A DNA stretch of 64,000 nt from Kiritimatiellia bacterium. GTDB lineage: Bacteria; Verrucomicrobiota; Kiritimatiellia; RFP12; UBA1067. Each line of letters starts with the position of its first letter. The stretch's first letter is position 1. Position numbers and translations under genes: made by a program. Below the pieces are notes generated by a model that did not search any database, had not been told where the DNA came from, and saw nothing but the letters and a program-made list of their open reading frames with translations. Shown here piece after piece: positions 4,605 to 25,112 of the stretch. Where the stretch lies: contig JAFUEM010000002.1 in the NCBI GenBank assembly GCA_017463935.1, positions 531 to 64,530 of the forward strand. Reading direction: 5' to 3'.

Positions 4605-4637
4605 TAATCCTGTCAATCCTGTTAATCCGGTCCAAAA
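4605..4637 (+). repeat. 32-nt tri-nonamer element, AATCCTGT family, copy A
   Basis: taatcctgtcaatcctgttaatccggtccaaaa versus consensus cAATCCTGTaAATCCTGTtAATCCTGTcAAAA has 3 mismatches and 1 extra base. It is read in frame as ..LDRINRIDRIN.. Confidence 0.85.
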
Positions 4638-4782
4638 CTTTCTTCAGCGCACCAGGCAGCAGAACATCATCGGCATTCAGCCAGAACAGCCACTCGCCCT
4701 TCGCCTTCTCAAACCCCTTGTTCAGCGCATCGCTCTGTCCGGCATCTGGCTCCCGAATCCATTCCACACCTCGCAAATCCAC

Positions 4783-4812
4783 CACTCCCAACTCCTCCAC
4801 TCCCAACTCCTC
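4783..4812. repeat. 15-nt perfect tandem duplication (CCACTCCCAACTCCT x2)
   Basis: Read directly and encodes EELGVEELGV. It sits at the N-terminal truncation point of the GT2 pseudogene. Confidence 0.85.
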
Positions 4813-4845
4813 CGTCCTGCACAATGATCTCCAAGCCCCTGCGCT

Positions 4846-5313
4846 TTAAGCGAATCGATAGCTTCGCCAAAGAAAGGTCTTCAGCAGCGGCAACGTTGTA
4901 TCCTTCGCATAGTCGCCAGTCGCAATAATCTTACTCGCCTTCCCCGCCTTGAACAATCTTGCCGCCTGCCAGACGCGATCGGCGCTTGTCGCCATCTCTG
5001 CATATGAACTCGTGTTCGTCTCGATGCCCATCGAACCACCCAGCAGCACTATTACGTCCGCTTCGGGGAACGACTCCACCATCGGCACCCTGCCATCCAC
5101 CAGAAACTCCTTCTCCAACGGCACGCCGACAATCCAAGTCATAATCGGCGTCATCCATTGCCACAGCCATGCGACAGTCAGCCAGCCGAGCCACTTCGCC
5201 ACGCGCTGCCGCTTCAGCCGAGCGCAAATCAACGCCCCCGCGCCGCCAATAATCGCAAGCCCGACGGGGCTCACCACACAACCTATTAATTTATGTAGTA
5301 CATATCTGCTCAA
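4846..5313 (-). pseudogene. DUF218 (YdcF/ElyC-like) protein, C-terminally truncated paralogue of 25936..26670
   Basis: TTG start. ..VLLGGS.. and RVWQAARLFKAGKA align with ..VLLGGG.. and RVWYAAKLYNAGKA of the 244-aa copy, but the ORF diverges and stops about 90 codons early. Confidence 0.55.
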
Positions 5314-5447
5314 CTCAAACTGTCACGGCAGATATTTTACCATTTCCTGATGAGTTGGAGCACCGAAAACTGAGGCGTCAAAACCATCCGCGGCACCGGC
5401 TATCACCTCTCCCCAGACTACCTCACACGCGCCCCCCTCGGCACTTG

Positions 5448-6077
5448 CTAATCTTCATGAATTCCAACAAGCCTAATTGTCATCTCCGATGGAAGTCCGT
5501 TTGTCAGCGCATTAACATCCGCGGCCTTGTCAACAGAAAGTAATGCGTCTGCAGCATTGAATCTAAACGCATCCCTCAATGAAATGACGTCAGGAATTTC
5601 CGGGCCGAACAATGCCGACCATACATTTGTGGATCTTTCAAGACCAGATGTCGGTGCAATCGGAATCGTATTCGTGGCAATGGAATAAATCTTCGCATAC
5701 TCTTCACCCAAAGCCAATGACTGCATCAGAACAAGGCGAGCCCCAAAGAACCGCCAGTCTTTTGGCCTGTTTGCATATTCGCGCTCTATAGCCCACAGCA
5801 GATTTGTCGCTTCCACACGAGCCAAAGTGTCGTGTTCCGTTTCCGCACGCTCAAGAAGCACTGCAGACTTAAGCAATCTACACTCAACCAGTTCGTCGCC
5901 ATTGGTTGTTGCCACAATGAGCGCATTGATTTGATTCATGGAGCCCATCCTCTCCAGATAATTTGTAGATGAAAAGTCATGAAGAATGCTAGTCATCTGT
6001 TCGTGATAATTGACCTCTGCAGGCAGCGCGAACACTGCGCAACAAACAGCCAATACTGATAGGAATTTAACTTTCAT
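5448..6077 (-). CDS. Secreted hypothetical protein (accessory protein of envelope module 1)
   Basis: ATG 6077 overlaps the upstream stop (ATGA). Signal peptide MKVKFLSVLAVCCAVFALPA. It shows weak similarity (NYH.., ..ATTNGDELV vs ..AANTNDLV) to 11859..12323 and 12333..12809. Confidence 0.6.
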   Translation of the reverse strand: MKVKFLSVLAVCCAVFALPAEVNYHEQMTSILHDFSSTNYLERMGSMNQINALIVATTNGDELVECRLLKSAVLLERAETEHDTLARVEATNLLWAIEREYANRPKDWRFFGARLVLMQSLALGEEYAKIYSIATNTIPIAPTSGLERSTNVWSALFGPEIPDVISLRDAFRFNAADALLSVDKAADVNALTNGLPSEMTIRLVGIHED

Positions 6078-8599
6078 AGATTTATTTCCTCCACGATCTC
6101 CAGATATTTACTGCGTAGATTCCATCCTCGACCGTCTCTCCTGAAATATCTATACTCGATCTTTCCACCTTGCAGAAGCCGTATTGCACAGGCATTGCGA
6201 CCATTCATATTATCGTTTGCCCGCATCCATGCCGCCACGTCACCAAGTGAACTCCTATTCGCGCACCAGCTATTGATGATTTGCACACCGCCTTGGTTGT
6301 CAAGCGGCGCCTTCCAGCAATATCCGAGAAGCGCACTTGCGCCTGATAATGTTGCCCATTTTAATCCTGGGCTCGCTGAATGACTTGCCGGATTTGAATA
6401 ATGATTTCCCTTGTCGCCGATGTCCAACACCGAACATCCGGCAAAAATGACCGTCTCAACATCCCTCCAATGGTTTGTCACGTCCGCCGGCACCGCAACG
6501 CCGTAAAGCCTTCCGGTGTCATGCTCGCCATGCCCCGAATAGTAGAACACATCGGCCTGCTGCTGGCACTGCTTCTTCGTAGAACAAGACGCTCCGCACG
6601 ATGCCATAAGGCAGCCCGTCCCTGCCGCCTGAACGGTCTTGAGGTTAAACTCGCCCTCGGGTATCTGCGCGTCGGCATTGCCGCCCCATCTTCCGCGCGC
6701 CCGTCCATAAAGTCGACCCGTCGTATTCTCATCAAAGCAGTCGCTGTCTATCCTGTCACTTCCCGCGTCGGGCCCATTTGCCATGTCAACCGAGGTCTTG
6801 GCGACAATTTCATCATCGGCATTGCGAATAATGCCATTCGACTGGAGCCAGGCGGCAGCAACCGACACGCGAAAGACGTTCTGCCCTTGCGAAGTCGTAG
6901 TTGTCGCGCTTATGGGAATCGCCGCACCAGCTATATCGTGCGCTCCGTCAAAATCGACATAATACGATTTGAGCCGGATTCTCCCGCCAAAGAGCCCTAC
7001 AAAGGCGGAGACTGTCATCTCAGAACCGCCGACAGTCGCCTTCACAATGACAGACTCTCCGACTATCACAGGGTATTTCCATTCAATGGCGTTGCCAGAA
7101 GCGTCCAGTATCTCAAGACTGACGCCGCGACTTTCAATCTCGTCAATGCTCGCCTGGTCTTCATAATAGCAACGACATCTCCCCCGCCAGGAGAACGGAT
7201 ACGAATACCCTTCCCATTTTGCGGCACCCGAAAGCGAATGTTCCGAACCGCCGCAGAGACATTGCAGGGAGCAACCCCACGAGAAACCAATCTCGTTCGT
7301 CACGCACGAGCAGCAACCGCCTGCGATGTTAAGGATTCTCGGGCCGACATCTATTGGCGAAGTGTGTGCAACATAGCTGTCGGAACCGCCGCGCATCTGA
7401 ACCCGCTCAAACGGCAACTCCAACGGCAAAGAAACGGTTAATCGGTTCGCGTCGTTTGTCACGATCTCCGCGTATTCGCTCGACACGGCAGAGTAGTCAA
7501 TCGGCAAGTTGCTATCGACTGCGTATGTCGCGCCAGCGAGAAGCGGGATGTGACAGACTTGGTTTGTCCGCGCAATGATCACATGGTCGCCAAGGTCGCT
7601 CGCTCCATCGCAAGTGACGCGGATCGCCGCAACGCCGAGAAGCCCAGTTACCGAAAGATCAAGCCAGTAGTAGGCATCGGGATTCGCGTTTGGTGGCAAG
7701 CCGTTTGCCGCGTCAAAGAAATCTCCGTCGTAGCTTGCCGGGTTCGCGTCTCGCTCGTTATGGATTCCATCATCATCCCAATCGTCGGGGTTGATGCGGC
7801 GGCAGACAGTCTCGACATCGTTGGAGCGTGTCAGGAAATCGCCATTGGGGGAAAGGATGATCTGCGCGTTGACGGGGCAGTTCGTGTCGCCGCCGAGGAA
7901 GAAGCTTTCCCATGTGAGGATGCGGACCCCGTCTTCGCCATCAAGCCGCCACAGTCGGCTTTGTTCTGGAACGGCAGACATTGGAACGCCAACGGCGCAG
8001 ATTTCGTGCGCGGCATCGTGCGGAGCCGGGCGTATGCGACCATCGATGAAATACCAAAACGACGAAAACGCCTCGTCGTTTGTGCCGAGCGGGAACGACC
8101 AATTGGTAGGGACGAGCGTCCCGCTCGTCCGCAAAACGCCGAAATCAACCACATTGTTCCCGAACGACGATGCCGCGCCGTGGATGTGCCAGTTCCCGAC
8201 AAGCGCTGCGTTCGTAGGCATCGCATACGAAACCGCCGCATTAGTCGTAACGCTCTCCACTCGCCACCCGCGCATAATGTCATCAATAGTTGTCTGGACA
8301 GGATTCACAAGGCTTATAAGATTACCAATCCCCACCAATCCTGTCAATCCTGTCAAAAAACTTCCACTAGGTTGCATCTGCGGCTGATTCATATTCGGCG
8401 GCACATTGTTCGTCTTCTGCGCGGTAAGAGTTGCGACAACTGCCGCTGCGGCAAACCCCAGCAAAAGCGAGCGCGGCAACCGGCGAAGTGCCCGCAGACC
8501 AACAACAGCGGCGTATGCAGCCGCAACAGCGAACATCGCCATTACAGTGCAGTAGCCAATATATAACCAATCCACTATCACTTCATTCCCCAAATCCAC
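6074..8599 (-). CDS. Giant membrane-anchored Cys-rich protein with C-terminal CHAT/caspase-like domain (envelope module 1)
   Basis: GTG 8599 lies 8 nt after GGGAGAAG. There are two N-terminal hydrophobic segments. A roughly 370-aa region is shared with 12842..15658 (AMPTNA, HGAxSxFG, SRLW, TWExFFxGGDTNxxVNAQI, NGDFxxRSND, RRINPxDWDxDG, CDGxSxLGD). Then come a Cys cluster (GGCCSCV..CLCGG..GRCRCY) and a C-terminal FYYSGHG-(31 aa)-CSVLD..LLGYCWKAPLD. Confidence 0.7.
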   Translation of the reverse strand: MDLGNEVIVDWLYIGYCTVMAMFAVAAAYAAVVGLRALRRLPRSLLLGFAAAAVVATLTAQKTNNVPPNMNQPQMQPSGSFLTGLTGLVGIGNLISLVNPVQTTIDDIMRGWRVESVTTNAAVSYAMPTNAALVGNWHIHGAASSFGNNVVDFGVLRTSGTLVPTNWSFPLGTNDEAFSSFWYFIDGRIRPAPHDAAHEICAVGVPMSAVPEQSRLWRLDGEDGVRILTWESFFLGGDTNCPVNAQIILSPNGDFLTRSNDVETVCRRINPDDWDDDGIHNERDANPASYDGDFFDAANGLPPNANPDAYYWLDLSVTGLLGVAAIRVTCDGASDLGDHVIIARTNQVCHIPLLAGATYAVDSNLPIDYSAVSSEYAEIVTNDANRLTVSLPLELPFERVQMRGGSDSYVAHTSPIDVGPRILNIAGGCCSCVTNEIGFSWGCSLQCLCGGSEHSLSGAAKWEGYSYPFSWRGRCRCYYEDQASIDEIESRGVSLEILDASGNAIEWKYPVIVGESVIVKATVGGSEMTVSAFVGLFGGRIRLKSYYVDFDGAHDIAGAAIPISATTTTSQGQNVFRVSVAAAWLQSNGIIRNADDEIVAKTSVDMANGPDAGSDRIDSDCFDENTTGRLYGRARGRWGGNADAQIPEGEFNLKTVQAAGTGCLMASCGASCSTKKQCQQQADVFYYSGHGEHDTGRLYGVAVPADVTNHWRDVETVIFAGCSVLDIGDKGNHYSNPASHSASPGLKWATLSGASALLGYCWKAPLDNQGGVQIINSWCANRSSLGDVAAWMRANDNMNGRNACAIRLLQGGKIEYRYFRRDGRGWNLRSKYLEIVEEINL
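8297..8360. repeat. Back-to-back inverted pair of AATCCTGT-family blocks (copy B plus a degenerate partner)
   Basis: gacaggattcacaaggcttataagatt (8297-8323, reverse orientation, degenerate) is followed by caatccccaccaatcctgtcaatcctgtcaaaaaa (8326-8360). Both are read in frame as ..FLTGLTGLVGIGNLISLVNPVQ.. in the linker after the membrane anchor. Confidence 0.8.
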
Positions 8600-8675
8600 C
8601 CATCAATCTTCTCCCTATGTCCCCTGCCCAACCCACCACGCGCAGTTCTTCCGTGTCACCCATTGAAATCACATA

Positions 8676-8717
8676 GTTATCTTCTACGGAAGGAAACGTC
8701 CTTCTGTAGAAGATAAC
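8676..8717. other. 19-bp stem hairpin (possible terminator or insulator)
   Basis: gttatcttctacggaagga-aacg-tccttctgtagaagataac has 18 Watson-Crick pairs plus one G-T and a 4-nt loop. There is no clear U-tail on either strand. It lies between the defence pair and the 841-aa gene. Confidence 0.6.
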
Positions 8718-8772
8718 CCCTTTCATCTGTGGATAAATCCACTTTCGTCGTTAGCCCCGCCAATCTGTGGAA

Positions 8773-9195
8773 TCACGACTTGTCTTCCGGCTTCAATTTC
8801 TCACATGTCTCTTCCACATTCGCATGAACAAGAGTCATGCAACGCGCAAGCACAAGTTCTGCGCCATCCGCCCGGTTGTTACAGCACTCGCATAATGGCG
8901 CTATAAACACCCGCTTATCATCTGAACCCTTTATCATCACATGACATCCTTCTATCTCAGCAAGCTTTCCATTTTTTGTCTTTCCAGTGCAACCAGCAAC
9001 CGCACAATCCCCAGCCCCAGGGGCATTCTTATCGCTTAAAGTCTCCCAATGCCTTATCCATGGACCGCAATTTGGGCATTCCCTGCTTTTCTTTGCCGTT
9101 CCATTTCGATTGATCAATACAGTCCCCGCAGGAACAAATTTCTGCGAGAAAATCTTGATTATCTCGTTAGCAACCTCATCATTTTGATTTTCCAT
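8773..9195 (-). CDS. Small Cys-rich putative zinc-binding His-Me (HNH-like) finger protein
   Basis: ATG 9195 is preceded by GGAGGT. The protein is 140 aa with 10 Cys. The pattern CPNC..CAVAGC..GCHV..(D)KRVFIAPLCECCNNR fits a zinc-stabilised beta-beta-alpha nuclease finger. There is no closer family assignment by eye. Confidence 0.45.
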   Translation of the reverse strand: MENQNDEVANEIIKIFSQKFVPAGTVLINRNGTAKKSRECPNCGPWIRHWETLSDKNAPGAGDCAVAGCTGKTKNGKLAEIEGCHVMIKGSDDKRVFIAPLCECCNNRADGAELVLARCMTLVHANVEETCEKLKPEDKS

Positions 9196-9438
9196 TTGGC
9201 ACCTCCATTTCTTGGATTATTCTTATGTTGTGACCGCACTCGCAGTCAGCGGGAAAGTTAGAAAAGAATTCCTACAAGTTTCTACAAAATCGCAGGAAAT
9301 TTGACAAGACAAGAATTGGTCTTTTATGCTTGCAATGGCAATAGTATCCTATTTGCGCCGACAATATCAATGCAACCTTGCGCTCTTTCTCAAACTCGCG
9401 CCACACGCCTGACATGAAGATTCGGTAGGTCATACAAG

Positions 9439-11787: not shown

Positions 11788-11830
11788 TTCATCACTCCTT
11801 CTTAGAGAAAAATTCCATGACCTTTCCTCA

Positions 11831-11861
11831 ATCTACACGTTCTACATGTTCTACACGGCTA
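11831..11861 (-). repeat. Tri-nonamer element, GTGTAGAAC family, solo copy
   Basis: The reverse complement tagccgtgtagaacatgtagaacgtgtagat shares TAGCCGTGTAGAAC.. with the arm at 23411-23442. It abuts and overlaps the stop codon of 11859..12323 and lies 44 nt upstream of the ATPase start. Confidence 0.85.
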
Positions 11862-12323
11862 TTTCTGGAGCGGCGTCCAGAGGCCGGTTTCCGAGATCTG
11901 TTCAAGGATGAAGTCGCAGTCCAAGGGCTTGTGCGAGATCTGGGACTTCGCCCTTTGCTCCTGAAGGACGGCGTCGGTCTGTTGCGGCAGAAATTCGTCG
12001 AGGTAGTACACCCACCCGGACCGAAGGTTGGAGCACAGATTCGTGAGCGACGGCTCGCTTACGGAGTCCAATGCGCAGACAAGGCGCTGTATCGAGTTTG
12101 ACATAGCCTGGTAGTCCGAAAACAATATGTCGTACGAAACCATGAGGTGCGAGGCGACGAGGTCGTTCGTGTTCGCCGCCAGACGCTGCTGCGCCAGCTC
12201 GTAGACGTTCGTCCAGTTGCCCTGATACCAGTCGTTCGTAACAGCGTGATAGTTGTCCGCCGACGGGGCCGCATGCGCGAACGCCGAGAGCGAGAATGCA
12301 ATTGCCGCGATTGTATTCTTCAT
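11859..12323 (-). CDS. Secreted hypothetical protein (tandem paralogue 2, envelope module 2)
   Basis: ATG 12323 follows GAGGGA. Signal peptide MKNTIAAIAFSLSAFAHA. It shares YHAVTNDWYxGNxxNVxELxxxRLAANTNDLV with 12333..12809. Confidence 0.7.
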   Translation of the reverse strand: MKNTIAAIAFSLSAFAHAAPSADNYHAVTNDWYQGNWTNVYELAQQRLAANTNDLVASHLMVSYDILFSDYQAMSNSIQRLVCALDSVSEPSLTNLCSNLRSGWVYYLDEFLPQQTDAVLQEQRAKSQISHKPLDCDFILEQISETGLWTPLQK

Positions 12324-12332
12324 GTCGTTCCC

Positions 12333-12809: not shown

Positions 12810-12841
12810 TTCCTTGTTCCTTTCTTTTCGAGTATCCATTG

Positions 12842-15658: not shown

Positions 15659-15665
15659 CTACTGC

Positions 15666-16142: not shown

Positions 16143-16205
16143 TGCGTCAATCCTTTCACCCTCCCTGCCGGGTCGTCGATAGTATAGCAATTAAGGGGAT
16201 TCTGC

Positions 16206-16225: not shown

Positions 16226-16244
16226 AACGCGAAAAAGGAGGCCC

Positions 16245-16270: not shown

Positions 16271-16316
16271 CGATTTTGCCTAACCCGCCGGGCCGGATAA
16301 ATGATATAATGTTCTC

Positions 16317-17949: not shown

Positions 17950-17995
17950 AGAAAAGCCTAAAAGCATCAGCCCCGTTGCGCGCCAAAATGCAAGA

Positions 17996-18024
17996 AGCCC
18001 CGCTCGGTCAAACCGAACGGGGCT
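17996..18024. terminator. Terminator-like hairpin, copy 1 of a duplicated element
   Basis: agccccgctcgg-tcaaa-ccgaacggggct. The minus-strand version is followed by TCTTGCATTTTGG. It sits between the converging kinase gene (+) and the ATPase segment (-). Confidence 0.6.
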
Positions 18025-18253
18025 CCTTATAATACTGCTATCGCTACTCTACGCTACATCTTCACTATGAGTCGGCGCAAACGCTCCTTGATCCGCTCCA
18101 GCTCCTCCAAGTCGCCGTGCGCCTCCGCGTATGCCATCAGCCCTTCAAGGCGACGGATCTGCTCGATGTAGTCATCCCGCTGTGGCATTGCAATAGAATT
18201 ATCTCCCGTTCCTACGCCACGTTCCTATCGTCACAGGCGCTAAGCGGCGCATG

Positions 18254-19624: not shown

Positions 19625-19734
19625 CCTTTTTCTTCCCCTTCATGTTGCCATACTTTAATGCTCGCGGTGGGTATTTTACTATATTCCCCTGCCGTAAGTC
19701 AATGGTGAATTGAGAAAATCTGCAAAAAGTCGAA

Positions 19735-19761
19735 GCCCCGCTCGGTCAAACCTAACGGGGC
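19735..19761 (-). terminator. Terminator hairpin, copy 2 of the duplicated element
   Basis: gccccgctcgg-tcaaa-cctaacggggc. The minus-strand version is followed by TTCGACTTTTTGCAGATTTTC. It has a 21-nt and an 8-nt identical run with 17996-18024, split by one mismatch. Confidence 0.65.
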
Positions 19762-19778
19762 CACTTGATACTGCATAA

Positions 19779-19796
19779 GCCGCCCTTTCGGACGGC
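19779..19796 (-). terminator. Terminator-like GNRA hairpin at the end of the glycan operon
   Basis: On the minus strand GCCGTCC-GAAA-GGGCGGC, the same 18-mer as 2838-2855. It lies 73 nt downstream of the last operon ORF (stop at 19869). Confidence 0.55.
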
Positions 19797-19868
19797 CCTA
19801 TTGAGTAATCAGGCGACTATCACACCACTCTCAAACTCCAACCCAAACCACCAACTCATCACTCGAAC

Positions 19869-20069
19869 TCACGTTTCCATCTGCTGCGCCTTGTACAGCC
19901 GATCCTGTTCCTTGCGCTGCTCGTCGGGTGGCAATGCACCGAAGCGCTTGCGCCAGCGGCGATAAACAACCTTGCTCCATATCTCAAAACAAACAGCAAG
20001 GACGGCGATAATCCCGACAACTATCAATATTATCTTCACTTCGTTTCTCCGATGATTAATATATACCAT
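19869..20069 (-). CDS. Small single-pass membrane protein (hypothetical)
   Basis: ATG 20069 overlaps the end of the sugar transferase gene by 14 nt. It has a hydrophobic core IILIVVGIIAVLAVCF followed by a basic tail. Confidence 0.4.
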   Translation of the reverse strand: MVYINHRRNEVKIILIVVGIIAVLAVCFEIWSKVVYRRWRKRFGALPPDEQRKEQDRLYKAQQMET

Positions 20070-20733
20070 CGCGCTTAGGGAGACTTGGGAATACTCGATT
20101 CATAAGTTTGCTTTTAGGGAACAAAATTACCCATGCGGTAAGAAAGATTAGCATTGCATCAGTCCAGAGCCCAATGTGCTTCTGATACCACATTTCCAAT
20201 GCGCCCTTGTACGGCGAGACGATCTTGGCGTAAGCCTCGTCGATGTCCATGCCCTTCTTCGCGCACTCCGACAATAACGTTTCCTCGTCGCGGAAGACGA
20301 CCGAGCCGATACCGGTCAGCCCCGGCTTCACGTTGTAGATGTTCGCCTTCACTTCGTCCGAGTAGGGTGCGAAGGTCTTGTCCACCAGCGGACGCGGGCC
20401 GACAATCGACATGTCGCCCAGGAAGATGTTGAAGAGCTGCGGCAGCTCGTTGATCTTCGTTTTGCGGAGGAAGCGACCGAACGGCAGCACGCGCGGATCG
20501 CCATGCGTCGTATGAAGTCCGCCAGCCATGTTCGGGCTGTTGCGCAACATCGTCGCGAACTTCAGAATCTTGAAATGCTTGTTCTTGTAGCCGATACGAT
20601 CCTGCCCGTAGAATATATCATGCTCGCCAGTGCATTTGAGAATTATCATGACAGGCACCAGCAATGGCGACAGCATGATGATTGCGAGACCTGAGAGGAG
20701 GATATCAAAGAAACGTTTGAGGGGTTTATACAT
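20056..20733 (-). CDS. Polyprenyl-phosphate sugar-phosphate transferase (PglC/WbaP-type initiating enzyme)
   Basis: MYKPLKRFFDILLSGLAIIMLSPLL.., KILKFATM, GDPRVLPFGRFLRKTKINELPQLFN and SIVGPRP are bacterial sugar transferase family hallmarks. Confidence 0.85.
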   Translation of the reverse strand: MYKPLKRFFDILLSGLAIIMLSPLLVPVMIILKCTGEHDIFYGQDRIGYKNKHFKILKFATMLRNSPNMAGGLHTTHGDPRVLPFGRFLRKTKINELPQLFNIFLGDMSIVGPRPLVDKTFAPYSDEVKANIYNVKPGLTGIGSVVFRDEETLLSECAKKGMDIDEAYAKIVSPYKGALEMWYQKHIGLWTDAMLIFLTAWVILFPKSKLMNRVFPSLPKRDGIY

Positions 20734-20746
20734 AGAGAGATCTTTC

Positions 20747-20778
20747 TTTTGACAGGATTAACAAGATTGACAGGATTA
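20747..20778 (-). repeat. 32-nt tri-nonamer element, AATCCTGT family, copy E (intergenic)
   Basis: ttttgacaggattaacaagattgacaggatta matches the arm at 24650-24681 at 29 of 32 positions. It ends 14 nt upstream of the sugar transferase start codon. Confidence 0.85.
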
Positions 20779-20784
20779 TGTTTT

Positions 20785-20865
20785 AACCACTAAATACACG
20801 AAATACACGAAAGATAAAGAAATGTTCAGATAAGGTATTTCGTGTATTTAGTGTATTTCGTGGTT
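20785..20865. repeat. 28-bp-stem inverted repeat of (N)AAATACAC nonamers with a 25-nt loop
   Basis: The left arm aaccactaaatacacgaaatacacgaaa (20785-20812) pairs with the right arm tttcgtgtatttagtgtatttcgtggtt (20838-20865) at 26 of 28 positions. The right arm encodes the last five codons (NHEIH) and the TAA of the epimerase gene. Confidence 0.85.
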
Positions 20866-21732
20866 TAGAAAACTCTTTAATGTTTCGCGCAGACCGTCTT
20901 CGGCGCGGACGGGCATCGCCGCCCAACCAAGGTGCGCCTTCAGCGCTGCATTGTCCACAAAGCTGTCCTCGGTCAGTTTGCCGAGGCGCTCCGTGTTGAG
21001 CGGCAGATGGAGGACGTCGCCCACTCTGGCGGCCAGCCGCATCAGTCCCTTCGGCAGTCGCCAGAGTCGCGGCTTGCGCCCACAGACCTCCGCCATCAAC
21101 TCTATAAGGCGGTTTGTCGAAAGCATCTCGTCATCGGCAATCGGGTAGACTCCATTTTTTCCGCGTTCGCACAGAGCCTCGACAGCGGCGCAGATGTTGC
21201 CGATGCTCGTGAACGAGCGTCTGTTCGCGAACGCCGCCAAAGGCCAGGGGAAGCCGCGCCGCGCAATGCCCCAGAGAAGATTCAAATTGCCCTTGTTCCC
21301 TGGACCGTGAATCATCGCCGGACGCAGCACGATGGCGCGCCCGGCCAGAAATTTCTCCGCCGCCAGCTTCGACTGTCCGTAGGGTGTATCGGCATCCGCC
21401 GCCTTGCTGCTGGAGAAGTAGATGAAGCGCGACACCTTGCCGTTAGCGGCATTGAATATCTTCTCCGTAAGGCCTACATTGATGTCGAAGTAGCTCTGCG
21501 GATCGCTCACGTTCTTGAGGTCATGCGCCTTGCCCGCAAGGTGAACGACAGCATCCATGCCAGCCCAGTCGATATTGCTGAGCTCGTCCCACGTATGAAA
21601 CGCCGCATACGGCACATCGTCGCACTTCGCCTTTGGAATGTCGAGTGCAACGCACTCGTGCCCCCTGCCGACAAGGTAGCGGCAGAGATTCGTGCCTACA
21701 AATCCATAGGCTCCAGAGATAAGGATACGCAT
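20848..21732 (-). CDS. NAD-dependent sugar epimerase/dehydratase family protein
   Basis: Internal ATG 21732 gives MRILISGAYGFVGTNL (Rossmann GxxGxxG). It belongs to the SDR extended family. Confidence 0.8.
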   Translation of the reverse strand: MRILISGAYGFVGTNLCRYLVGRGHECVALDIPKAKCDDVPYAAFHTWDELSNIDWAGMDAVVHLAGKAHDLKNVSDPQSYFDINVGLTEKIFNAANGKVSRFIYFSSSKAADADTPYGQSKLAAEKFLAGRAIVLRPAMIHGPGNKGNLNLLWGIARRGFPWPLAAFANRRSFTSIGNICAAVEALCERGKNGVYPIADDEMLSTNRLIELMAEVCGRKPRLWRLPKGLMRLAARVGDVLHLPLNTERLGKLTEDSFVDNAALKAHLGWAAMPVRAEDGLRETLKSFLNHEIH

Positions 21733-21736
21733 ATTA

Positions 21737-22978
21737 TTACATCCTCGAATCAAGCGACTTGCCCTTCTCGATGTGCTGGAAGTTGGGGAGGTATTCTTTC
21801 AGAACCTCTATGACATCCGCCTTCTCTGCGCCGGGCTTCCTGAACACAGCGCGCAGGTTTGCGAAGATCGCCTCTACCTCCTCTACGGGGCGCTTCTTGG
21901 AATTTTTGACCGCGCCAAGATTGATGAAGGTCGTCTCGTCTTTGATGTCCGTATCCGTATAGAACTCCTCAAACGTCTTCTCGCCACTCGTGTCGCTGCC
22001 GAAGAACTCGCACGGGTAGCCATTTTTAACGCAGAGGCGCAGAGACGCAGAGTTCGCAGAGATTTCCCTCATGGATTCTTTAGCTTCAATGGAACTGGAG
22101 CAAACCTTGCACCCGAACCCCATGTCATTCAGCATATCCTTCACCACAGCATCGAACGGGATCATGTCCTTCTCTGGATCAAGCTTTGGATAGACGATAT
22201 CGCCACTCTCAGCCATGACGCTTGCAAACAGGCACAGCTCACCCGACTCTGTCGGGCTCACGAAGAACCTGCGAATCCCAAGCGGACAACTCAGTGGCTG
22301 CTTCTTCTGTATGCGGTTTAGCCAGCCGATGGGAAGCGATCCGTTGGAGAACGCGACATTGGCAAACCGCGCCGTCTTGATCGGAAGCCTATCGGAGTAC
22401 GCCATGATAGTCTCCTCCATCAACTTTTTCGTCGCGCCCATAACGTTTACAGGATTCGCCGCCTTATCCGTCGAGACGCAGAAGAACGCCTCAGGCGGAT
22501 TCTCCAACAGCAAATCCAACAACTTCTTCGCCATAAACACATTTGTCTCGCACATCGCCTCGATGGAGAAGACGTCACGCTCCGCCCGCACGTGCTTCCT
22601 TGCCGCGAAGTTCGCGACAATATCGAACGGCCCCTTTGCCTTGAAGAATCGGTCAAACAAGTCGCTACCAAGGTCGATAGGTTCGGTAATATACTCTTCA
22701 GGGACATTGTAGTCGCCTGCCCTCAGTTCACGCGTCAGTTCCGTCAGTGAGTTTTCATCAATGTCGACGACGAACATCGCCGCCGGCTTGAATCCGCGCA
22801 ACGCCGCCTTGATGTAGTTGCTACCGATTGTCCCAGCGCCGCCGATGACAAGCATCCGCTTGCCGTCGATTCGCCAGTGCATCTCGTCACGGCACTTCTC
22901 AAAGTCAGCCGCCAAAAGCGACTCCGCCCGCTTGGTCATGTACTTGCGGACAAATGATTCAATGTCAAAGTCGATCAT
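21737..22978 (-). CDS. CapD/PglF-like nucleotide-sugar dehydratase (polysaccharide biosynthesis protein)
   Basis: ..MLVIGGAGTIGSNYIK.., ..FFCVSTDKAANPVNVMGATKKLME.. It contains an in-frame CGCAGAG block (..SASLRLCVKNG..). Confidence 0.75.
   Translation of the reverse strand: MIDFDIESFVRKYMTKRAESLLAADFEKCRDEMHWRIDGKRMLVIGGAGTIGSNYIKAALRGFKPAAMFVVDIDENSLTELTRELRAGDYNVPEEYITEPIDLGSDLFDRFFKAKGPFDIVANFAARKHVRAERDVFSIEAMCETNVFMAKKLLDLLLENPPEAFFCVSTDKAANPVNVMGATKKLMEETIMAYSDRLPIKTARFANVAFSNGSLPIGWLNRIQKKQPLSCPLGIRRFFVSPTESGELCLFASVMAESGDIVYPKLDPEKDMIPFDAVVKDMLNDMGFGCKVCSSSIEAKESMREISANSASLRLCVKNGYPCEFFGSDTSGEKTFEEFYTDTDIKDETTFINLGAVKNSKKRPVEEVEAIFANLRAVFRKPGAEKADVIEVLKEYLPNFQHIEKGKSLDSRM
22030..22062. 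repeat. Tandem block (CGCAGAGN x4)
   Basis: Reads cgcagagg cgcagaga cgcagagtt cgcagaga, in the same orientation and with the same T-rich flanks as 3062-3085. Confidence 0.85.
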
Positions 22979-22991
22979 AGAAGGACCTTTC

Positions 22992-23442
22992 TTAACCGTG
23001 TAGAACGTGTAGAAACGTGTAGATTTATGCCGTGATGGTACGACGCTCGAATTTGTAAGAACCGAAATTTATCAGAAGTCCAACTGGTGAATGCGTTATC
23101 TTTAGATAGTTGAGAATTTGTGCGAAATGCTCAGGCGCGAGTGTCTTGACCGCTTTCAGTTCAACTATCAATCTATCATTAACAAGCATATCCACGAAGT
23201 AGTCTCCAACACAATATTCATCTTCATCAAACACTTTTAATGGCTGTTGCCGTTCGACCTTGAACCCAGCCTTTACAAGTCTGTGTTCAAGCGCAGACTC
23301 ATACACTTTTTCAAGCAAGCCGTTACCAAAGTATTCGTGTACGCCATATGCGATTTGCCCAACCTTAGAAGCAAGTTCCCTCAACTCATCAGCGCAATCC
23401 ATCTCTCTCCTTCTACACGATCTGCACGTTCTACACGGCTAA
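22992..23442 (-). mobile_element. 451-bp cassette: GxxExxY gene bounded by 32-nt terminal inverted repeats of GTGTAGAAC nonamers (candidate miniature mobile element)
   Basis: The left arm is ttaaccgtgtagaacgtgtagaaacgtgtaga (22992-23023). The reverse complement of the right arm (23411-23442) is ttagccgtgtagaacgtgcagatcgtgtagaa. The outer 22 nt match at 20 positions and the inner nonamer realigns with a 1-nt indel. The cassette fills the gap between the GT2 stop (23443) and the CapD-like start (22978). Confidence 0.55.
23025..23402 (-). CDS. GxxExxY protein (PD-(D/E)XK nuclease-like superfamily)
   Basis: The protein is 125 aa. ..VHEYFGNGLLEKVYESALEHRL.. contains the eponymous G-L-L-E-K-V-Y motif. 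..DMLVNDRLIVELKAV.. is a D..E-x-K-like core. Confidence 0.8.
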   Translation of the reverse strand: MDCADELRELASKVGQIAYGVHEYFGNGLLEKVYESALEHRLVKAGFKVERQQPLKVFDEDEYCVGDYFVDMLVNDRLIVELKAVKTLAPEHFAQILNYLKITHSPVGLLINFGSYKFERRTITA

Positions 23443-24225
23443 TCACTTTATCCCCAGCCTCGGTAGGATGAACTCAAACACCTTGAAGAAATATTTAGGC
23501 AGCAGCATCGGGAAGCAACAGAAATACCCATTCTCCAAGTTGCCGCGAACAATCTCCCTATTGAGAGTCTTGAAACTTTTCCAACCACGCGTCGACTTGC
23601 CGCCCATCCGCATCCTAACCAAGCATTCGTTCAAGTAGCGCGTATTGAGCTTGGCCATACGTAGGTATCGTATAAGCAACTCATAATCAGCCGCGATATC
23701 ATAGCCCAGCTTGTACAACCCATACTGATCAAACAATTCTCGCCTGATATACACACTCGGATGCGGCGGCATCTTCCCCCATTGCAGCATCCACGGCTTC
23801 CAATGCTTCGCAGAATAATAGCGGCTCGTTGTCTGCAAATCATCCTTCACAAATCGAATATCGGCGTAGACACAATCAACTCTCTCACCCACTCCTCCAC
23901 TACTAAAAGCCTCCACGACATGTGCAAGCGTATTCTCCGACTCAAACATGTCGTCCGCATTAAGAATCCCTACAATATCGCCCGTTGCCATCTTGATTCC
24001 CTTGTTGATGGCGTCGTACATGCCCGCGTCAGACTCGCTTATCCAGCGCATAAGCCCATTGAAACACGGCTCGTATTCTTTGAAGATTGCAATGCTGTCG
24101 TCCGTGGACGCCCCATCCACAACGATGTATTCGACATCTACACCCTTTTGTGAAAGGACGCTCTCAATCGCAGTCCGTATTGTTCCCGCACTGTTGTAAC
24201 ACGCTGTTATAAGCGAAATCTTCAT
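23443..24225 (-). CDS. Family-2 glycosyltransferase
   Basis: ATG 24225 forms an ATGA overlap with the GT4 stop; the track start at 24231 is TTG. MKISLITACYNSAGTIRTAIESVLSQKGVDVEYIVVDGASTDDS.. with an NADD (DxD-type) motif. Confidence 0.85.
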   Translation of the reverse strand: MKISLITACYNSAGTIRTAIESVLSQKGVDVEYIVVDGASTDDSIAIFKEYEPCFNGLMRWISESDAGMYDAINKGIKMATGDIVGILNADDMFESENTLAHVVEAFSSGGVGERVDCVYADIRFVKDDLQTTSRYYSAKHWKPWMLQWGKMPPHPSVYIRRELFDQYGLYKLGYDIAADYELLIRYLRMAKLNTRYLNECLVRMRMGGKSTRGWKSFKTLNREIVRGNLENGYFCCFPMLLPKYFFKVFEFILPRLGIK

Positions 24226-25112
24226 TTGCAAATCCTCTCTATCGCCTTTTTCAGCAACTCCACTCTCTCCTCATCCGTCCCGTCCCGATACCCCTTCAGA
24301 TAAATCAACCGTCCGCCATAGCCCGAATACAATCCTGTAAATCCTGTTAATCCTGTCAAAACCTCTCCCCATGCTGGTGCGCCGTCGGTGGTGATGACGC
24401 GCCTACCGCGCTCGAGAGCTTCGGCTATGACAAGCCCGAAATTGTCGGAGAGGGTCGGGAGAACGAGCACGTCGCACCAGTCCCAAATTTTTTCGAGCTC
24501 TTCGCCAAAGGCATTGGAGACAACTTTCAGTTGCGGGGTAACAGGTAACAGGGAACTGGGAACAGATGAGAGTTGTTGTACGGCGGCTTCGAGATAGTTG
24601 AGGCCCTTGAGCGGATGGCGGCGGCCAAGGTAGAGGAGGTGGAGGTCTTTTTTGACAGGATTAACAGGATTTACAGGATTGAGATTGGCGAGATTGAAGA
24701 ACCGCTTGATGTCGGTGACTTCAACAGGCGGGCAGCGGCGACCAAGATAGGCGCGAATCCAGTCGGCCTCGGCTTCGCATGTGGCAACAAGCACCTTAGC
24801 ACGGCGGAGGCAAAAGCGCTCGATGGGGCCGACAAGAGTCTTCTTCCAACCATGATAGGCCCGCCGGATTGGATCATAACACGCCTCTGGCATCCAACGG
24901 ACGTTCCGACCCCACAATGCCGCCCACCAGAGGCAGGGCAACCATCCACAATGAATCCATATCTCGTCAGCGGATCGAAGTTGGCGAATCGATGCCCACG
25001 TGCGGAATGAGACGGCGTGCCCCTGCTGCACCTGCTCACCCATAATGAGCCGAGCAATATTAGCCGCGCCATTCCACTTTTGCCAACCAGCGCAAATGTG
25101 AAGAATTCTCAT
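24222..25112 (-). CDS. GT4 (group 1) glycosyltransferase, intact, carrying an internal perfect inverted repeat
   Basis: MRILHICAGW.. The C-terminal half has ..VLVLPTLSDNFGLVIAEALERGRRVITT.. (EX7E-type). The ORF is open through both 32-nt arms and the heptamer block. Confidence 0.85.
   Translation of the reverse strand: MRILHICAGWQKWNGAANIARLIMGEQVQQGHAVSFRTWASIRQLRSADEIWIHCGWLPCLWWAALWGRNVRWMPEACYDPIRRAYHGWKKTLVGPIERFCLRRAKVLVATCEAEADWIRAYLGRRCPPVEVTDIKRFFNLANLNPVNPVNPVKKDLHLLYLGRRHPLKGLNYLEAAVQQLSSVPSSLLPVTPQLKVVSNAFGEELEKIWDWCDVLVLPTLSDNFGLVIAEALERGRRVITTDGAPAWGEVLTGLTGFTGLYSGYGGRLIYLKGYRDGTDEERVELLKKAIERICK
24330..24361 (+). repeat. 32-nt tri-nonamer element, AATCCTGT family, copy C (left arm of perfect IR)
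   Basis: caatcctgtaaatcctgttaatcctgtcaaaa, read in frame as ..LTGLTGFTGL.. Confidence 0.95.
24537..24564. repeat. Tandem heptamer block (GGTAACA GGTAACA GGGAACT GGGAACA)
   Basis: Read directly. It encodes part of ..SSVPSSLLPVTPQ.., an insertion relative to ..GLPNVE.. in the paralogue at 3278..4133. Confidence 0.8.
24650..24681 (-). repeat. 32-nt tri-nonamer element, AATCCTGT family, copy D (right arm of perfect IR)
   Basis: ttttgacaggattaacaggatttacaggattg is the exact reverse complement of 24330-24361 (32 of 32). It is read in frame as ..NPVNPVNPVK.. Confidence 0.95.

Follow-up and report, generated by a model that had tools for sequence, protein, structure and literature searches.

The REPIN-RAYT systems consist of REP doublets that form hairpins, together with a REP-associated tyrosine transposase (Bertels and Rainey 2011, PMC3116915; PMC3337134; PMC3733652), and RAYTs have been described as single-copy and vertically inherited (PMC3116915; PMC3337134; PMC3733652). 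The elements reported here, found in a 64-kb stretch of DNA (hereafter the window) and in many other genomes, resemble this arrangement in several respects. Both comprise short repeats dispersed chiefly between genes, with an inverted doublet of variable spacer as the prevalent unit and with singlets also common. Both include a small cognate gene that is flanked by inverted copies of its repeats, gene clades that pair with different repeat families, and a preference for non-promoter spacers. However, the gene examined here is of the PD-(D/E)XK type (Cas4/RecB-like) rather than a Y1 HUH transposase, and each arm consists of 8-9 nt repeated directly three times plus a T-rich tail, whereas REPs are self-palindromic and carry a GTAG/CGTC tag. 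Moreover, about 18% of the copies here reside within ORFs and are translated, and the cassettes are present in multiple copies at varied sites (three in tandem in contig L210), with the same arm family spread across many phyla. We consider REPIN-RAYT to be the best analogy, albeit one in which the gene encodes a Cas4-like nuclease and the arms are built of tandem repeats.

Rickettsia palindromic elements (RPEs), reportedly described by Ogata et al. in 2000, are said to be MITE-like and to lie in-frame within genes. The shared feature is a small palindromic or foldback repeat that sits in-frame in a surface or linker region, where the protein tolerates the added peptide. However, RPEs measure 100-150 nt, are confined to Rickettsia, and have neither tandem units nor an associated gene, whereas a solo arm here spans 33 nt and its family has a flanked nuclease gene. 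The STRR heptamer arrays and small dispersed repeats of cyanobacteria, reportedly described by Mazel in 1990 and by Elhai et al. in 2008 (cited in PMC3116915), are also similar in that they are dispersed elements of about 20-30 nt with short-period tandem arrays, located between and occasionally within genes, whose mobility is evidenced by presence/absence comparisons. Their units and architecture appear unlike those seen here, and no cognate flanked gene is known to have been proposed for them. Finally, 23S rRNA intervening sequences carry a small ORF between inverted repeats inserted in a transcribed host unit, and Avd has been linked to PF05635 ('23S_rRNA_IVP') (PMC10053308), the family of one armed gene discussed below. 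In contrast to those sequences, the sites here are protein-coding operons rather than rRNA helices, the arms are tandem arrays, and the usual cargo is a nuclease-fold protein.

Arms, foldbacks and a GxxExxY cassette in the window

The 32-nt element that a sequence-only reading of the window had singled out is one arm type of a widespread family of small foldback DNAs that bracket a GxxExxY nuclease gene. This family has apparently not been described before. That reading rightly took the element to be a specific family and not low complexity. A 31-mer with up to three mismatches matches four times in the window (0.00 expected from 100 shuffles), and exact AATCCTGT octamers number 15 versus 1.38 expected, with 6 as the largest shuffle value. 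The copies, orientations and translations that it listed, including the intergenic copy upstream of a start codon, were all recovered (Table 1). This intergenic arm at 20747 is kept at the same junction in related strains, in identical form in L223 and in similar form in L228.

At least four unit families of identical build are present in the window, namely AATCCTGT, TCTACACG, CACGAAATA and CGCAGAG, and the last of these also borders GxxExxY genes elsewhere. Among the three TCTACACG arrays, two exactly flank the ORF that encodes the GxxExxY protein. This protein is predicted to adopt a PD-(D/E)XK nuclease fold, and residues D71, E81 and K83 are invariant. Its structure model (pLDDT 89.8) has Cas4 (4ic1) as the best PDB match, with Cas4/RecB-like nucleases as the top matches. 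Based on the invariant residues and this confident model, a nuclease function is plausible. No GxxExxY gene armed with AATCCTGT is found within this window, and a divergent GxxExxY gene with AATCCTGT-type arms is carried by the related rumen/gut contig L210. A co-occurring recombinase or DNA-binding protein had been proposed as something to look for; no recombinase, integrase or transposase gene is present within the 64 kb.

Table 1. Arms, foldbacks, cassette components and a heptamer array in the window
Position	Feature	Strand	Composition	Location and translation
3062-3084	CGCAGAG-family arm	-	GTTTTGAA + 3 units	DSAPLRLCV, within truncated GT2 gene 2733-3287(-)
4606-4636	AATCCTGT-family arm, solo	+	3 units + CCAAA tail, 3 mismatches	DRINRIDRIN, within degraded GT2 fragment 4507-4824(-)
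8297-8360	AATCCTGT-family foldback	both arms	degenerate arm 8297-8323 (-), 74% similarity to family; 4-nt centre; arm 8328-8360 (+), degenerate first unit, two exact units, CAAAAAA	in-frame SFLTGLTGLVGIGNLISLVNPV (8328 copy LTGLTGL), close to N-terminus of ORF 6074-8599(-)
11827-11861	TCTACACG-family solo arm	+	TCTACACG x3; 86% identity to 23407-23441	intergenic, ORF 11859-12323 / PDC-S06-like gene
20747-20777	AATCCTGT-family solo arm	-	2 mismatches	intergenic, 13 nt 5' of ATG of Bac_transf gene 20056-20733
20785-20865	CACGAAATA x3 / TATTTCGTG x3 empty foldback, third family	both arms	arms 20785-20812 / 20838-20865, 28 nt, 93% complementary; 25-nt centre	between epimerase and Bac_transf genes; abuts 20747 arm
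22029-22062	CGCAGAG-family arm	-	TTTTTA + 4 octamer units	in-frame ISANSASLRLCV, within CapD-like gene 21737-22978(-)
22992-23023	TCTACACG/CGTGTAGA-family downstream arm of cassette	-	TTAAC + 3 units (TCTACACG x3)	begins directly 3' of GxxExxY stop codon
23025-23402	GxxExxY gene, cassette cargo	-	125 aa; PF13366 E 6.7e-35; TIGR04256 E 6.6e-36	
23411-23442	TCTACACG-family upstream arm of cassette	+	3 units (TCTACACG x3) + GGCTAA tail	ends 8 nt before GxxExxY start codon; gap is the GGAGAGAG Shine-Dalgarno
24331-24361	AATCCTGT-family arm	+	exact match	part of +33-nt in-frame insertion VLTGLTGFTGL, loop 'site 3', GT4 gene 24222-25112(-)
24540-24565	heptamer array AACAGGG/AACTGGG x3.7			+27-nt in-frame insertion SSVPSSLLPVT, loop 'site 2', GT4 gene; polymorphic among orthologues
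24650-24680	AATCCTGT-family arm	-	exact match	NPVNPVNPVKK, interdomain linker ('site 1'), GT4 gene 24222-25112(-)

Arm architecture and its association with GxxExxY genes

The element is not confined to the window, since at least 119 genome loci from approximately 10 phyla contain its exact 26-nt core, a spread based on MAG taxonomy labels that may include misbinned contigs. Its build is fixed, with three AATCCTGTN units followed by a C and an A-rich tail. Exactly three units are present in 187 of the 223 arrays in these 119 array-selected loci, the C comes next in 93%, and no conserved 5' flank is seen among the 223 arrays. Close pairs are predominantly heads-facing (54, versus 7 tails-facing), so that the usual form is an inverted pair around a variable centre. 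Read inward, each arm consists of a T-rich tail ending in A/G-C and then three tandem units of 8-9 nt. The tails of paired arms point outward, and the centre between the arms is either short and variable, giving an empty foldback, or a whole small gene that brings its own Shine-Dalgarno sequence. The enclosed gene is usually that for the 125-aa GxxExxY protein, and once encodes an Avd-like four-helix bundle. Many unit families follow this plan, including ACAGGATTN, CGTGTAGAA, CACAGATNA, CGCAGAGN, CACAAAGN and CACGAAATA. The arms are mostly intergenic and are found in 17 convergent versus 3 divergent spacers.

When 75 loci were chosen by the GxxExxY protein alone, inverted three-unit arms were found in 53. 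The median inverted-repeat score of the flanks was 33, compared to 15 for controls, and 53 of the 75 exceeded the control 95th percentile, whereas clear arms are missing from the other 22 genes. On the upstream side, the median gap from the arm to the start codon is 14 nt, and on the downstream side the arm follows the stop codon at a median distance of 3 nt. The T-rich...A-C tail is common to all families at these cassettes. For example, ACAGGATT/AATCCTGT arms surround GxxExxY genes in L003, L029, L092 and L101, and CACGAAGG arms do so in L106.

All six units of a given cassette are of the same variant, and this variant goes with the clade of the protein inside. The two arms of a cassette share identical unit cores in 62% of cases, compared to 5% between cassettes, and none of 2000 permutations in a Mantel test reached the observed covariation of protein and arm. 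Similar arms accompany 57% of protein pairs with at least 70% identity, versus 0-1% of those below 45%. Among Kiritimatiellae-type contigs, proteins 83-90% identical to that of the window all have TTTTTAAC[CGTGTAGA]3 arms, at a different junction, whereas a 54%-identical protein has CACAAAG arms and a 43%-identical protein has TTTTGACAGGATT arms. Gene and arms are found jointly at different operon junctions. The pairing is nevertheless loose, because proteins that share as little as 43% identity can both have ACAGGAT-type arms. Extra arms near cassettes belong to the cassette's own family in six cases and to another in none, although only 2 of 32 loci contribute, which is too few to judge cognate dispersal. 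In L224-226, the operon junction that holds the GxxExxY cassette in the window is taken up by an unrelated PF05635 four-helix-bundle gene, which has inverted octamer arms of its own. This one independent example suggests that the arms could be read by some trans-acting factor that is not the cargo.

Among close strains, arms, foldbacks and cassettes are variously present, missing or swapped at fixed sites. The GT4 gene has three hypervariable loop sites at which arrays are present, absent or replaced in orthologues of 74-85% identity. The site 3 insertion is missing in 12 of 37 aligned orthologues, and site 1 holds other array families or non-array sequence in some. A paralogue of this gene also lacks the 33-nt block. 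In line with the sequence-only reading, the copies are insertions rather than conserved coding repeats. At such intra-ORF sites, the 33-nt arm preserves the reading frame and is translated. Likewise, an FdtA-like gene carries in-frame arms of different families at one codon in different strains, and a CapD module is preceded or followed by a GxxExxY gene in some cases, whereas in others it lacks one or has the Avd-like gene with its own arms. In L210, arms coincide with a structural-variant breakpoint, and the structure there looks like the product of an arm-to-arm unequal crossover.

Possible modes of spread

We think it probable, though by no means assured, that this modular foldback element works with its GxxExxY gene in the manner of REPIN-RAYT, a mechanism that we infer. 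The GxxExxY nuclease would recognise its own arms, probably as an oligomer that matches one subunit to each unit, and would cut at or near them, whereupon host repair would copy or insert the arm-bounded DNA. Empty foldbacks and solo arms would be non-autonomous derivatives or scars, and the surviving copies would be only those between genes or in-frame in tolerant loops. Dispersed identical arms could also act as short, movable stretches of homology and so rearrange the hypervariable glycan loci in which they build up. The earlier suggestion that the copies are footprints of a tiny insertion element was close to the mark, but it overlooked the link to GxxExxY, the sibling families and the cross-phylum spread. 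PD-(D/E)XK enzymes cut and do not carry out strand transfer by themselves, which speaks against a REPIN-RAYT-like reading. So do the loose pairing of arms with proteins, the armed PF05635 gene, the 22 protein-selected genes with no clear arms, the lack of target-site duplications beyond 1-2 nt and the missing AATCCTGT-armed gene in the window.

A possible but rather unlikely alternative is that only whole cassettes insert, either by an unknown route or through homologous recombination when segments of glycan loci are transferred horizontally, and that empty foldbacks and solo arms are left after deletion of the gene. The arms would then be immobile and not acted on by the nuclease, and might, for instance, have a cis-regulatory or structural role in the cassette. 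Consistent with such passive scars, pseudogenised GxxExxY remnants lie between arms in L101, and at the GT2-CapD junction of L228 a foldback with a centre of about 100 nt stands where other strains carry a gene. Moreover, any target-site duplication is at most 1-2 nt long, and the covariation of protein and arm could be explained if gene and flanks had simply descended together. The L210/L209/L204 series also shows arms engaged in ordinary homologous recombination. However, arms heavily outnumber genes (5 GxxExxY genes among the 119 array-selected loci), and each clean 33-nt in-frame arm would require insertion of a cassette of about 450 nt into an essential loop followed by precise deletion. 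In addition, different families occupy the same loop sites in sister strains, and solo arms retain the strict form of three units and tail across phyla, which is unexpected for decaying scars.

It is less likely still that the element acts at the RNA level, with the inverted arms forming a long stem in polycistronic mRNA, comparable to 23S rRNA intervening sequences around small ORFs, that serves as an RNase III-type substrate or as a REP-like stabiliser or insulator, dispersal being secondary. RNase III is specific for double-stranded RNA, and stems of 27-33 bp are long enough for such nucleases. The arms also tightly flank the ORF, just beyond the Shine-Dalgarno sequence and the stop codon, and are positioned at intra-operon junctions, and the alternative armed cargo belongs to a family named for 23S intervening sequence proteins. 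Nevertheless, deviations from the consensus are hardly ever compensated (57 in one arm only versus 4 shared), and free N positions covary weakly between paired arms (36/86 versus 27.6 +/- 3.9 expected). Solo arms occur frequently and have no preferred orientation relative to transcription (14 versus 11), many copies lie within ORFs, and no Rfam family matches the window or 16 loci. A stem would require neither tandem units nor cassette-specific variants.

The sequence-only reading had raised a shufflon-like switch, in which opposite arms are crossover sites for a segment-inverting recombinase. Copies do occur in both orientations across 20 kb, and the pair at 24330-24361 and 24650-24681, both within one ORF and separated by 288 nt, is a perfect 32-nt inverted repeat. 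However, this interval encodes the conserved GT4 C-domain and keeps the same orientation in the paralogue and each of the 37 aligned orthologues. Elsewhere, heads-facing partners are typically only 4-150 nt apart, which indicates a foldback rather than an invertible segment, and the same architecture surrounds a small gene in the 53 independent armed loci. With no recombinase gene in the 64 kb, such a switch is very improbable.

We give just as little credence to the foldbacks being unusual integron-type cassette sites served by a tyrosine integrase encoded elsewhere, with the small genes as cargo. Like integron cassettes, the cargo is small, promoterless and within operons, and like attC sites, the foldbacks are imperfect palindromes (60-200 nt) with conserved outer boxes and variable centres. 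The attC boxes of integrons read RYYYAAC/GTTRRRY, and the outer boxes of some families, TTTTAAC...GTTAAAA, recall them, but the AATCCTGT family has GAC/GTC rather than AAC/GTT. Furthermore, the palindrome here encloses the gene instead of adjoining it, the arms consist of tandem repeats and also occur singly within ORFs, and no integrase is found in the window or sampled loci.

Least probable of all are ordinary coding or slippage repeats, whether selected peptide repeats (NPV, or collagen-like Gly-X-Y) or microsatellites, and these were rejected for the canonical copies, which have exactly three units and a tail, occur in both orientations and at least four reading frames, lie mostly between genes, and are missing in the paralogue and some orthologues. 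The ACAGGATTN nonamer does read Gly-X-Y, and viral and Bacillus-type contigs, namely L006 and many of L236-L270, have long coding arrays of it.

Three-unit arms and a bracketed gene in a glycan island

The repeats described here, on a metagenome scaffold of Kiritimatiellae, lie in a large, compositionally foreign glycan island, a low-GC block at ~3-56 kb (roughly 53 kb, 41-60% GC) with intermediate edges and outer ends (1-2000 and 58000-64000) at 65-69% GC. The island is one large region of surface-glycan biosynthesis, made up almost entirely of glycosyltransferase and sugar-nucleotide enzyme genes, and a domain scan of ORFs across the window found no recombinase, integrase or transposase encoded in it. 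Its left edge (2700-5350) is a decayed duplicate of the GT2-GT4-GT2-DUF218 segment at 23440-26670, and direct repeats D1 and D2 of this duplicate share 77-84% identity. Two candidate anti-phage genes lie inside the island, and an FRG-domain gene marks its right-hand boundary (Table).

The 32-nt element described in the sequence-only reading is present as reported, with four matches in the window and none expected in shuffles. We refer to each copy as an arm, composed of three tandem units of 8-9 nt and a T-rich or A-rich tail. The octamer AATCCTGT occurs 15 times in the window versus 1.4 expected, and two arms form a perfect 32-nt inverted repeat (24330-24361 / 24650-24681) within a single ORF, the GT4 glycosyltransferase gene. 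The translations given for the genic copies are correct, and the intergenic copy indeed sits 13 nt ahead of a start codon. No Rfam family matched the window or 16 element-rich loci at the gathering threshold.

Tandem-repeat and inverted-repeat scans revealed further three-unit arrays of like build in the window. One pair of inverted TCTACACG arms exactly brackets ORF 23025-23402. The order on the coding strand is the stop codon of the upstream GT2 gene, AGC[CGTGTAGAA]3, GGAGAGAG, ATG...TAA, [TTCTACACG]3GTTAA and the next gene. We use the term “foldback” for two inverted arms with their tails outward around a centre, and “cassette” for a foldback whose centre is a small gene.

Arms, arrays and other features of the window
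Feature	Position	Strand	Remarks
AATCCTGT-family arm	4606-4636	+	31-mer search, at most 3 mismatches
AATCCTGT-family arm	20747-20777	-	same search; intergenic
AATCCTGT-family arm	24331-24361	+	same search; inside ORF
AATCCTGT-family arm	24650-24680	-	same search; inside ORF
AATCCTGT-family arm and degenerate inverted partner	8328-8360; 8297-8323		both recovered as family members
TCTACACG arrays	11827-11861; 22992-23023; 23411-23442
CACGAAATA arrays	20785-20812; 20838-20865		empty hairpin, 25-nt centre
CGCAGAG arrays	3062-3084; 22029-22062		both inside ORFs, translated
GxxExxY gene	23025-23402	-	125 aa
GT2 gene of left-edge duplicate	2733-3287		truncated
GT4 gene of left-edge duplicate	3278-4133		frameshift-split at 16-nt tandem duplication (AAATGTACTGGATTGG x2.3, 3633-3669)
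GT2 gene of left-edge duplicate	4130-4824		split
DUF218 gene of left-edge duplicate	4846-5313		truncated
Candidate anti-phage gene	9439-11787	-	PDC-S06-like AAA_13/SMC protein, E 8e-60
Candidate anti-phage gene	18254-19624	-	PDC-S01-like AAA_14/DUF4143 protein, E 1.5e-105
FRG-domain gene	56395-57726	-

The bracketed ORF scores 123.2 bits against TIGR04256 (cut-off 35) and 120.4 bits against PF13366 (cut-off 22), and carries the GxxExxY motif as G28-L-L-E31-K-V-Y34. The glutamate of this motif is invariant, as are D71, E81 and K83. An AlphaFold model (pLDDT 89.8) contains the classic alpha-beta-beta-beta-alpha-beta core, and the best PDB matches in a fold search are Cas4 SSO0001, lambda-exonuclease-like enzymes, the AdnAB nuclease domain, MGME1, tRNA-splicing endonucleases and Hjc. 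Invariant residues, confident model and fold matches together suggest that the GxxExxY protein is a minimal nuclease domain that is probably active. A PDB search by sequence returned no relative, and membership in a defence system was dropped after a search of PADLOC gave no match. The family is very large, with more than 3,000 90%-identity clusters near enough to this member for scoring and more than 559 matches. PF13366 has been classed as of unknown function, with multiple horizontal transfers (PMC3424549). The other papers found on GxxExxY, PF13366 or TIGR04256 hold only “function unknown” and incidental mentions, and an informal remark on flanking repeats may exist in the TIGR04256 database comments.

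Other repeats in the window were also noted. A 15-nt/7-nt periodic array at 4770-4813 (CTCCCAACTCCTCCA x2.9) contributes the peptide EELGVEELGV to the beginning of a GT2 fragment, and its reverse complement, GGAGTTGGGAGTGG, resembles the GGGAGTGA arms around a PF05635 gene in a related contig (L224; L-numbers denote other loci compared). In or next to a GT1 gene, an exact 21-nt direct repeat (32587 and 32635) adjoins a hairpin (32640-32674 / 32693-32727; 35 nt, 89% complementary), and neither is related to the nonamer arms. At 47082-47126 there is a perfect 21-nt inverted repeat with a 3-nt loop (TCTGTGCCCGTATAGTTCTTG / CAAGAACTATACGGGCACAGA).

Arms in other genomes and around other GxxExxY genes

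The AATCCTGT family is not confined to this window, since an exact scan with AATCCTGTNAATCCTGTNAATCCTGT, using one genome per species, yielded at least 119 loci; the seed was an exact three-unit match, and such counts are lower bounds. By the taxon labels of the MAG submitters, these loci belong to Chloroflexota/Anaerolineae, Kiritimatiellia, Verrucomicrobiota, Lentisphaerota, Planctomycetota, Acidobacteriota, Syntrophobacteraceae and other Desulfobacterota, sulfur-oxidising and other Gammaproteobacteria, Bacteroidales, Chlamydiota and one archaeal MAG. Their flanks are unrelated, which indicates that the element is resident in each genome. Among these loci, exactly three units are present in 187 of 223 arrays (at most 3 mismatches), a figure shaped in part by the seed. 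The same three-unit form is seen in loci selected by protein, independent of that seed. The base following the three units is C in 93% of arrays and precedes an A-rich run, and the other side lacks conservation.

Pairs with a gap of at most 150 nt face each other with their heads, tails outward, in 54 cases versus 7 with tails facing, and the dominant form is TTTnG[ACAGGATTN]3, a centre of 4-150 nt, and [AATCCTGTN]3CnAAA. Deviations from the consensus occur in one arm only in 57 cases and are matched in the partner arm in 4, and the free N positions of paired arms agree only slightly above chance. Because deviations are almost never matched, the arms are not maintained as a stem, and we rejected selection for base pairing as the main constraint. 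The same lack of compensation speaks against a role for the arms at the RNA level, as does their lack of strand bias, and we consider such a role possible but poorly supported. Solo intergenic arms show no preferred orientation relative to transcription (14 versus 11); they do avoid divergent spacers (3 divergent versus 17 convergent). Arrays are also rarer in coding sequence, the median open span being 113 codons compared to 397 at random positions, but 38 of 212 (about 18%) are located deep within long ORFs, oriented either way and read in several frames.

A separate phenomenon is seen in L006, L068 and many viral contigs, which carry long collagen-like or NPV coding repeats. Seven viral contigs, some labelled giant-virus MAGs (L238, L244, L249, L253, L259, L263 and L264), have collagen-like Gly-X-Y repeats whose long coding arrays are built of AATCCTGT-like nonamers. 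The shared nonamer is here a coincidence of codon choice, and these arrays are distinct from the foldback element. Phages were rejected as vectors, given that the 35 matching viral contigs hold mostly collagen-like coding repeats, with ~10 canonical matches and none with a GxxExxY gene. A recurrent neighbouring recombinase was likewise rejected, as all-against-all clustering of 789 ORFs from the loci gave no family in more than 7 loci. Exact-sequence literature searches with dimers of AATCCTGT and of other unit families found no matching paper.

Several array-selected loci contain GxxExxY genes directly flanked by arms, of the ACAGGATT/AATCCTGT type in L003, L029, L092 and L101 and of the CACGAAGG/CCTTCGTG type in L106. 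An independent test set comprised 80 metagenome loci fetched by protein alone, of which 75 had a flank on each side of the gene. The best local inverted repeat between upstream and downstream flanks has a median score of 33 (n=75), compared to 15 when flanks of different loci are paired, and 53 of the 75 loci exceed the 95th percentile of this control. Nearly all of these arms consist of three, sometimes four, tandem units of 8-9 nt, and the upstream arm stands a median 14 nt from the start codon, the downstream arm a median 3 nt from the stop codon. The unit families include ACAGGAT(T/G)N, CACAGATNA, CGCAGAGN, CGCGGAGN, CGCAAAGN, CGCGAAGN, CACAGAGN, CGTGTAGAA, CACGGATGA and CGCCGATGCA, among others, and an outer T-rich tail ending in A-C is common to all arm families.

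Arms also match within a cassette. In the C[AG]CNNA[GTC] superfamily, 62% of comparisons between the arms of one cassette give an identical unit core, versus 5% between cassettes, and uniform-unit cassettes occur (e.g. CGCGAAG x6, CGCGGAG x6 and CACGGAT x6). How closely two arms resemble each other can be predicted from the relatedness of their proteins (Mantel test, 0 of 2000 permutations): among pairs with at least 70% protein identity, 57% have similar arms, compared to 0-1% of those below 45%. Kiritimatiellae-type contigs offer three protein clades with three arm families. In the first, the proteins are 83-90% identical to the GxxExxY protein of the window and all have TTTTTAAC[CGTGTAGA]3 arms, at an FnlA-like / cassette / FdtA-like junction unlike the GT2 / cassette / CapD-like junction of the window. 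The second (L227; 54% identity) has CACAAAG arms, and the third (L210; 43%) has TTTTGACAGGATTGACAGGAT / AATCTTGTCAATCCTGTCAAAAAA arms, the family of the 32-nt element. That each clade has its own arms, at different junctions, indicates that gene and arms travel together. The L210 clade further shows that this lineage has a possible cognate gene type for the AATCCTGT arms, albeit outside the window. Local enrichment of own-family arms near cassettes was set aside, since the count of 6 own-family versus 0 other-family arms comes from 2 of 32 loci.

Differences between strains at arm sites

Arms are present, absent or different at loop sites of the GT4 gene. The frameshifted GT4 paralogue at the left edge of the island lacks the 33-nt block holding the 24331 arm as well as a 27-nt heptamer block, and 37 aligned orthologues (74-85% identity) have three hypervariable loop sites. 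Site 1 encodes NPVNPVNPV in most orthologues and other arrays or non-array sequence in the remainder. Site 2 holds heptamer, CTCTGCG-type or AATCCTGT-type arrays, or nothing. Site 3 encodes LTGLTGFTGL, LSRVERVE-type (CGTGTAGA) or IHETHEK-type (CACGAAA) peptides, or is empty (12 sequences). The difference between filled and empty forms of site 3 is a clean 33-nt block, with no target duplication longer than 1-2 nt visible. The GT2 gene hosting the 4606 arm was considered for a similar comparison with the GT2 gene at 25109-26035 and was rejected, the two not being close paralogues. The heptamer array (24540-24565, AACAGGG/AACTGGG) is a 27-nt in-frame insertion in the GT4 gene, polymorphic among orthologues; its reverse complement, TCCCAGT, resembles CCCCAGT, the unit of the cyanobacterial STRR1 repeat.

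The sequence-only reading had suggested shufflon-like inversion between oppositely oriented copies. This idea is not supported, as a scan of ORFs across the window gave no recombinase domain, the paralogue and all 37 orthologues have the GT4 segment in colinear order, and the exact scaffold is known in one arrangement only.

A CapD-epimerase-Bac_transf module is conserved between strains (86-96% identity), and its junctions vary. The GxxExxY cassette stands before CapD in the window and after it in L227. L224-L226 have, before CapD, a PF05635 (Avd-like four-helix-bundle) gene with its own inverted GGGAGTGA/TCACTCCC arms, a type of cargo seen at one independent locus among the sequences examined. 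L230-L233 have an AAA_21/RloB pair before CapD (GT2-CapD junction, 439-2389), and L223 and L228 have no insertion. In gene-less strains, the junctions hold empty foldbacks or stacked solo arms of differing families. For example, CACAAAG, TCTACACG and AATCCTGT arms stand in series directly ahead of the Bac_transf start codon in L228, and the 20747 arm of the window is identical in L223.

Around CapD, L224-L226 (1-4773), from a sister strain, also encode a 1034-aa protein with a weak RVT_1 match and an Abi_2 protein beside the PF05635 gene; the glycan locus may thus harbour a retroelement or an abortive-infection module made up of these genes. The AAA_21 and RloB genes of L230-L233, from another sister strain, resemble an OLD/abortive-infection pair, and no arms were seen around them.

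One codon of an FdtA-like gene (after ...IEVE[N/S]F) is the site of an in-frame arm, and the arm family there depends on the strain: TTTTAAC[CGTGTAGA]3 in L209 and a ACAAGATT/ACAGGAT arm in L204. In L210, two complete GxxExxY cassettes and a further arm lie within 1.8 kb, in the order FnlA, a ACAGGATT-armed GxxExxY cassette, the N-terminal part of FdtA, a CGTGTAGA arm, a GxxExxY gene, two CGTGTAGA arms, the FdtA N-terminal part again, and a ACAAGATT arm. Judged from its structure, this locus is what unequal crossing-over would yield if a solo CGTGTAGA arm inside FdtA recombined with the same arm ahead of a cassette. No other observation bears directly on what dispersed arms do.

A possible mobile element and its rivals

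It is possible, if rather doubtful, that these sequences represent a new class of prokaryotic mobile element. It would consist of a Cas4-like nuclease gene bounded by inverted arms of three recognition units, with the nuclease, in place of a classical transposase, driving a spread that has seeded non-autonomous foldbacks and 33-nt in-frame arms in at least 10 phyla, supplying enzymes with new peptide loops and providing portable recombination sites that shuffle surface-glycan gene clusters.

For the very large, uncharacterised GxxExxY/PF13366 family, its own flanking triple-repeat arms are a consistent DNA partner and offer a concrete, testable function hypothesis. Arms also explain puzzling length polymorphisms and odd low-complexity peptides (NPVNPVNPV, LTGLTGFTG, SRVERVERVE and SASLRLCV) in glycosyltransferases and sugar-modifying enzymes of gut and rumen Kiritimatiellae. 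They mark rearranged junctions of surface-polysaccharide loci, which bears on the origin of glycan diversity.

The closest known analogue is the REPIN-RAYT system, in which a small gene is flanked by its own inverted repeats with family-specific pairing and a preference for non-promoter spacers, and gene-less inverted doublets and singlets far outnumber gene-flanking repeats (PMC3116915). Our observations fit a system of this kind. Like REPINs, the arms are short, dispersed and mostly extragenic, despite the fraction inside long ORFs, and form inverted doublets with a variable spacer; the gene is likewise flanked by its own repeat family with clade-specific pairing. However, the arms are three direct tandem units plus a tail and not self-complementary, whereas a REP is an imperfect palindrome with a GTAG/CGTC tag, and the flanked gene has a PD-(D/E)XK fold whereas RAYT is a Y1 HUH (IS200/IS605-related) transposase. 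A RAYT gene is described as single-copy and vertically inherited; in the contigs and MAGs covered here, L210 has two complete cassettes, a cassette type occurs at different junctions and an arm family in many phyla. We describe the system by analogy as one that probably works like REPIN-RAYT, and do not file it as a member because of its non-Y1 gene, direct triple repeats, copies in ORFs and cross-phylum family. In this reading, the nuclease would recognise the arm units, cutting and host repair would then spread arm-bounded DNA, and survival within ORFs would be limited to copies that preserve the frame. The main rival is that the arms are passive scars of cassette gain and loss. Should the nuclease act on its arms, REPIN-RAYT would gain a mechanistically independent counterpart, a second system of its type that, unlike REPINs, crosses phyla and inserts in-frame into genes.

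Arms of 27-33 nt resemble the terminal inverted repeats of MITEs or IS-derived elements. Unlike such elements, they show no fixed-length target-site duplication in the filled/empty comparison of GT4 site 3, and no DDE, HUH, serine or tyrosine transposase is present in the window or recurrent in the at least 119 loci. The foldback outer boxes (TTTTAAC...GTTAAAA) give only a loose resemblance to integron attC sites, and an IntI integrase and attI platform are absent from the window and sampled loci.

CsrA-type GGA sites, a TTGACA promoter and an intrinsic terminator were dropped on three grounds: a variable tail (CAAAA, CTAAA, CCAAA), a T-run located ahead of the hairpin and not behind it, and the lack of strand bias. 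Mimicry of 16S rRNA was also rejected. ACAGGATTA equals positions 782-790 of E. coli 16S rRNA (L271, rrsH), a match that we treat as coincidence because 0 of 11 other nonamer or octamer units of GxxExxY-arm families match the rRNA operon. The lone further match, at chance level, is the octamer GGGAGTGA of the L224 IVP arms. The 16S stretch identical to ACAGGATTA is universally conserved and lies just 5' of the 790 loop.
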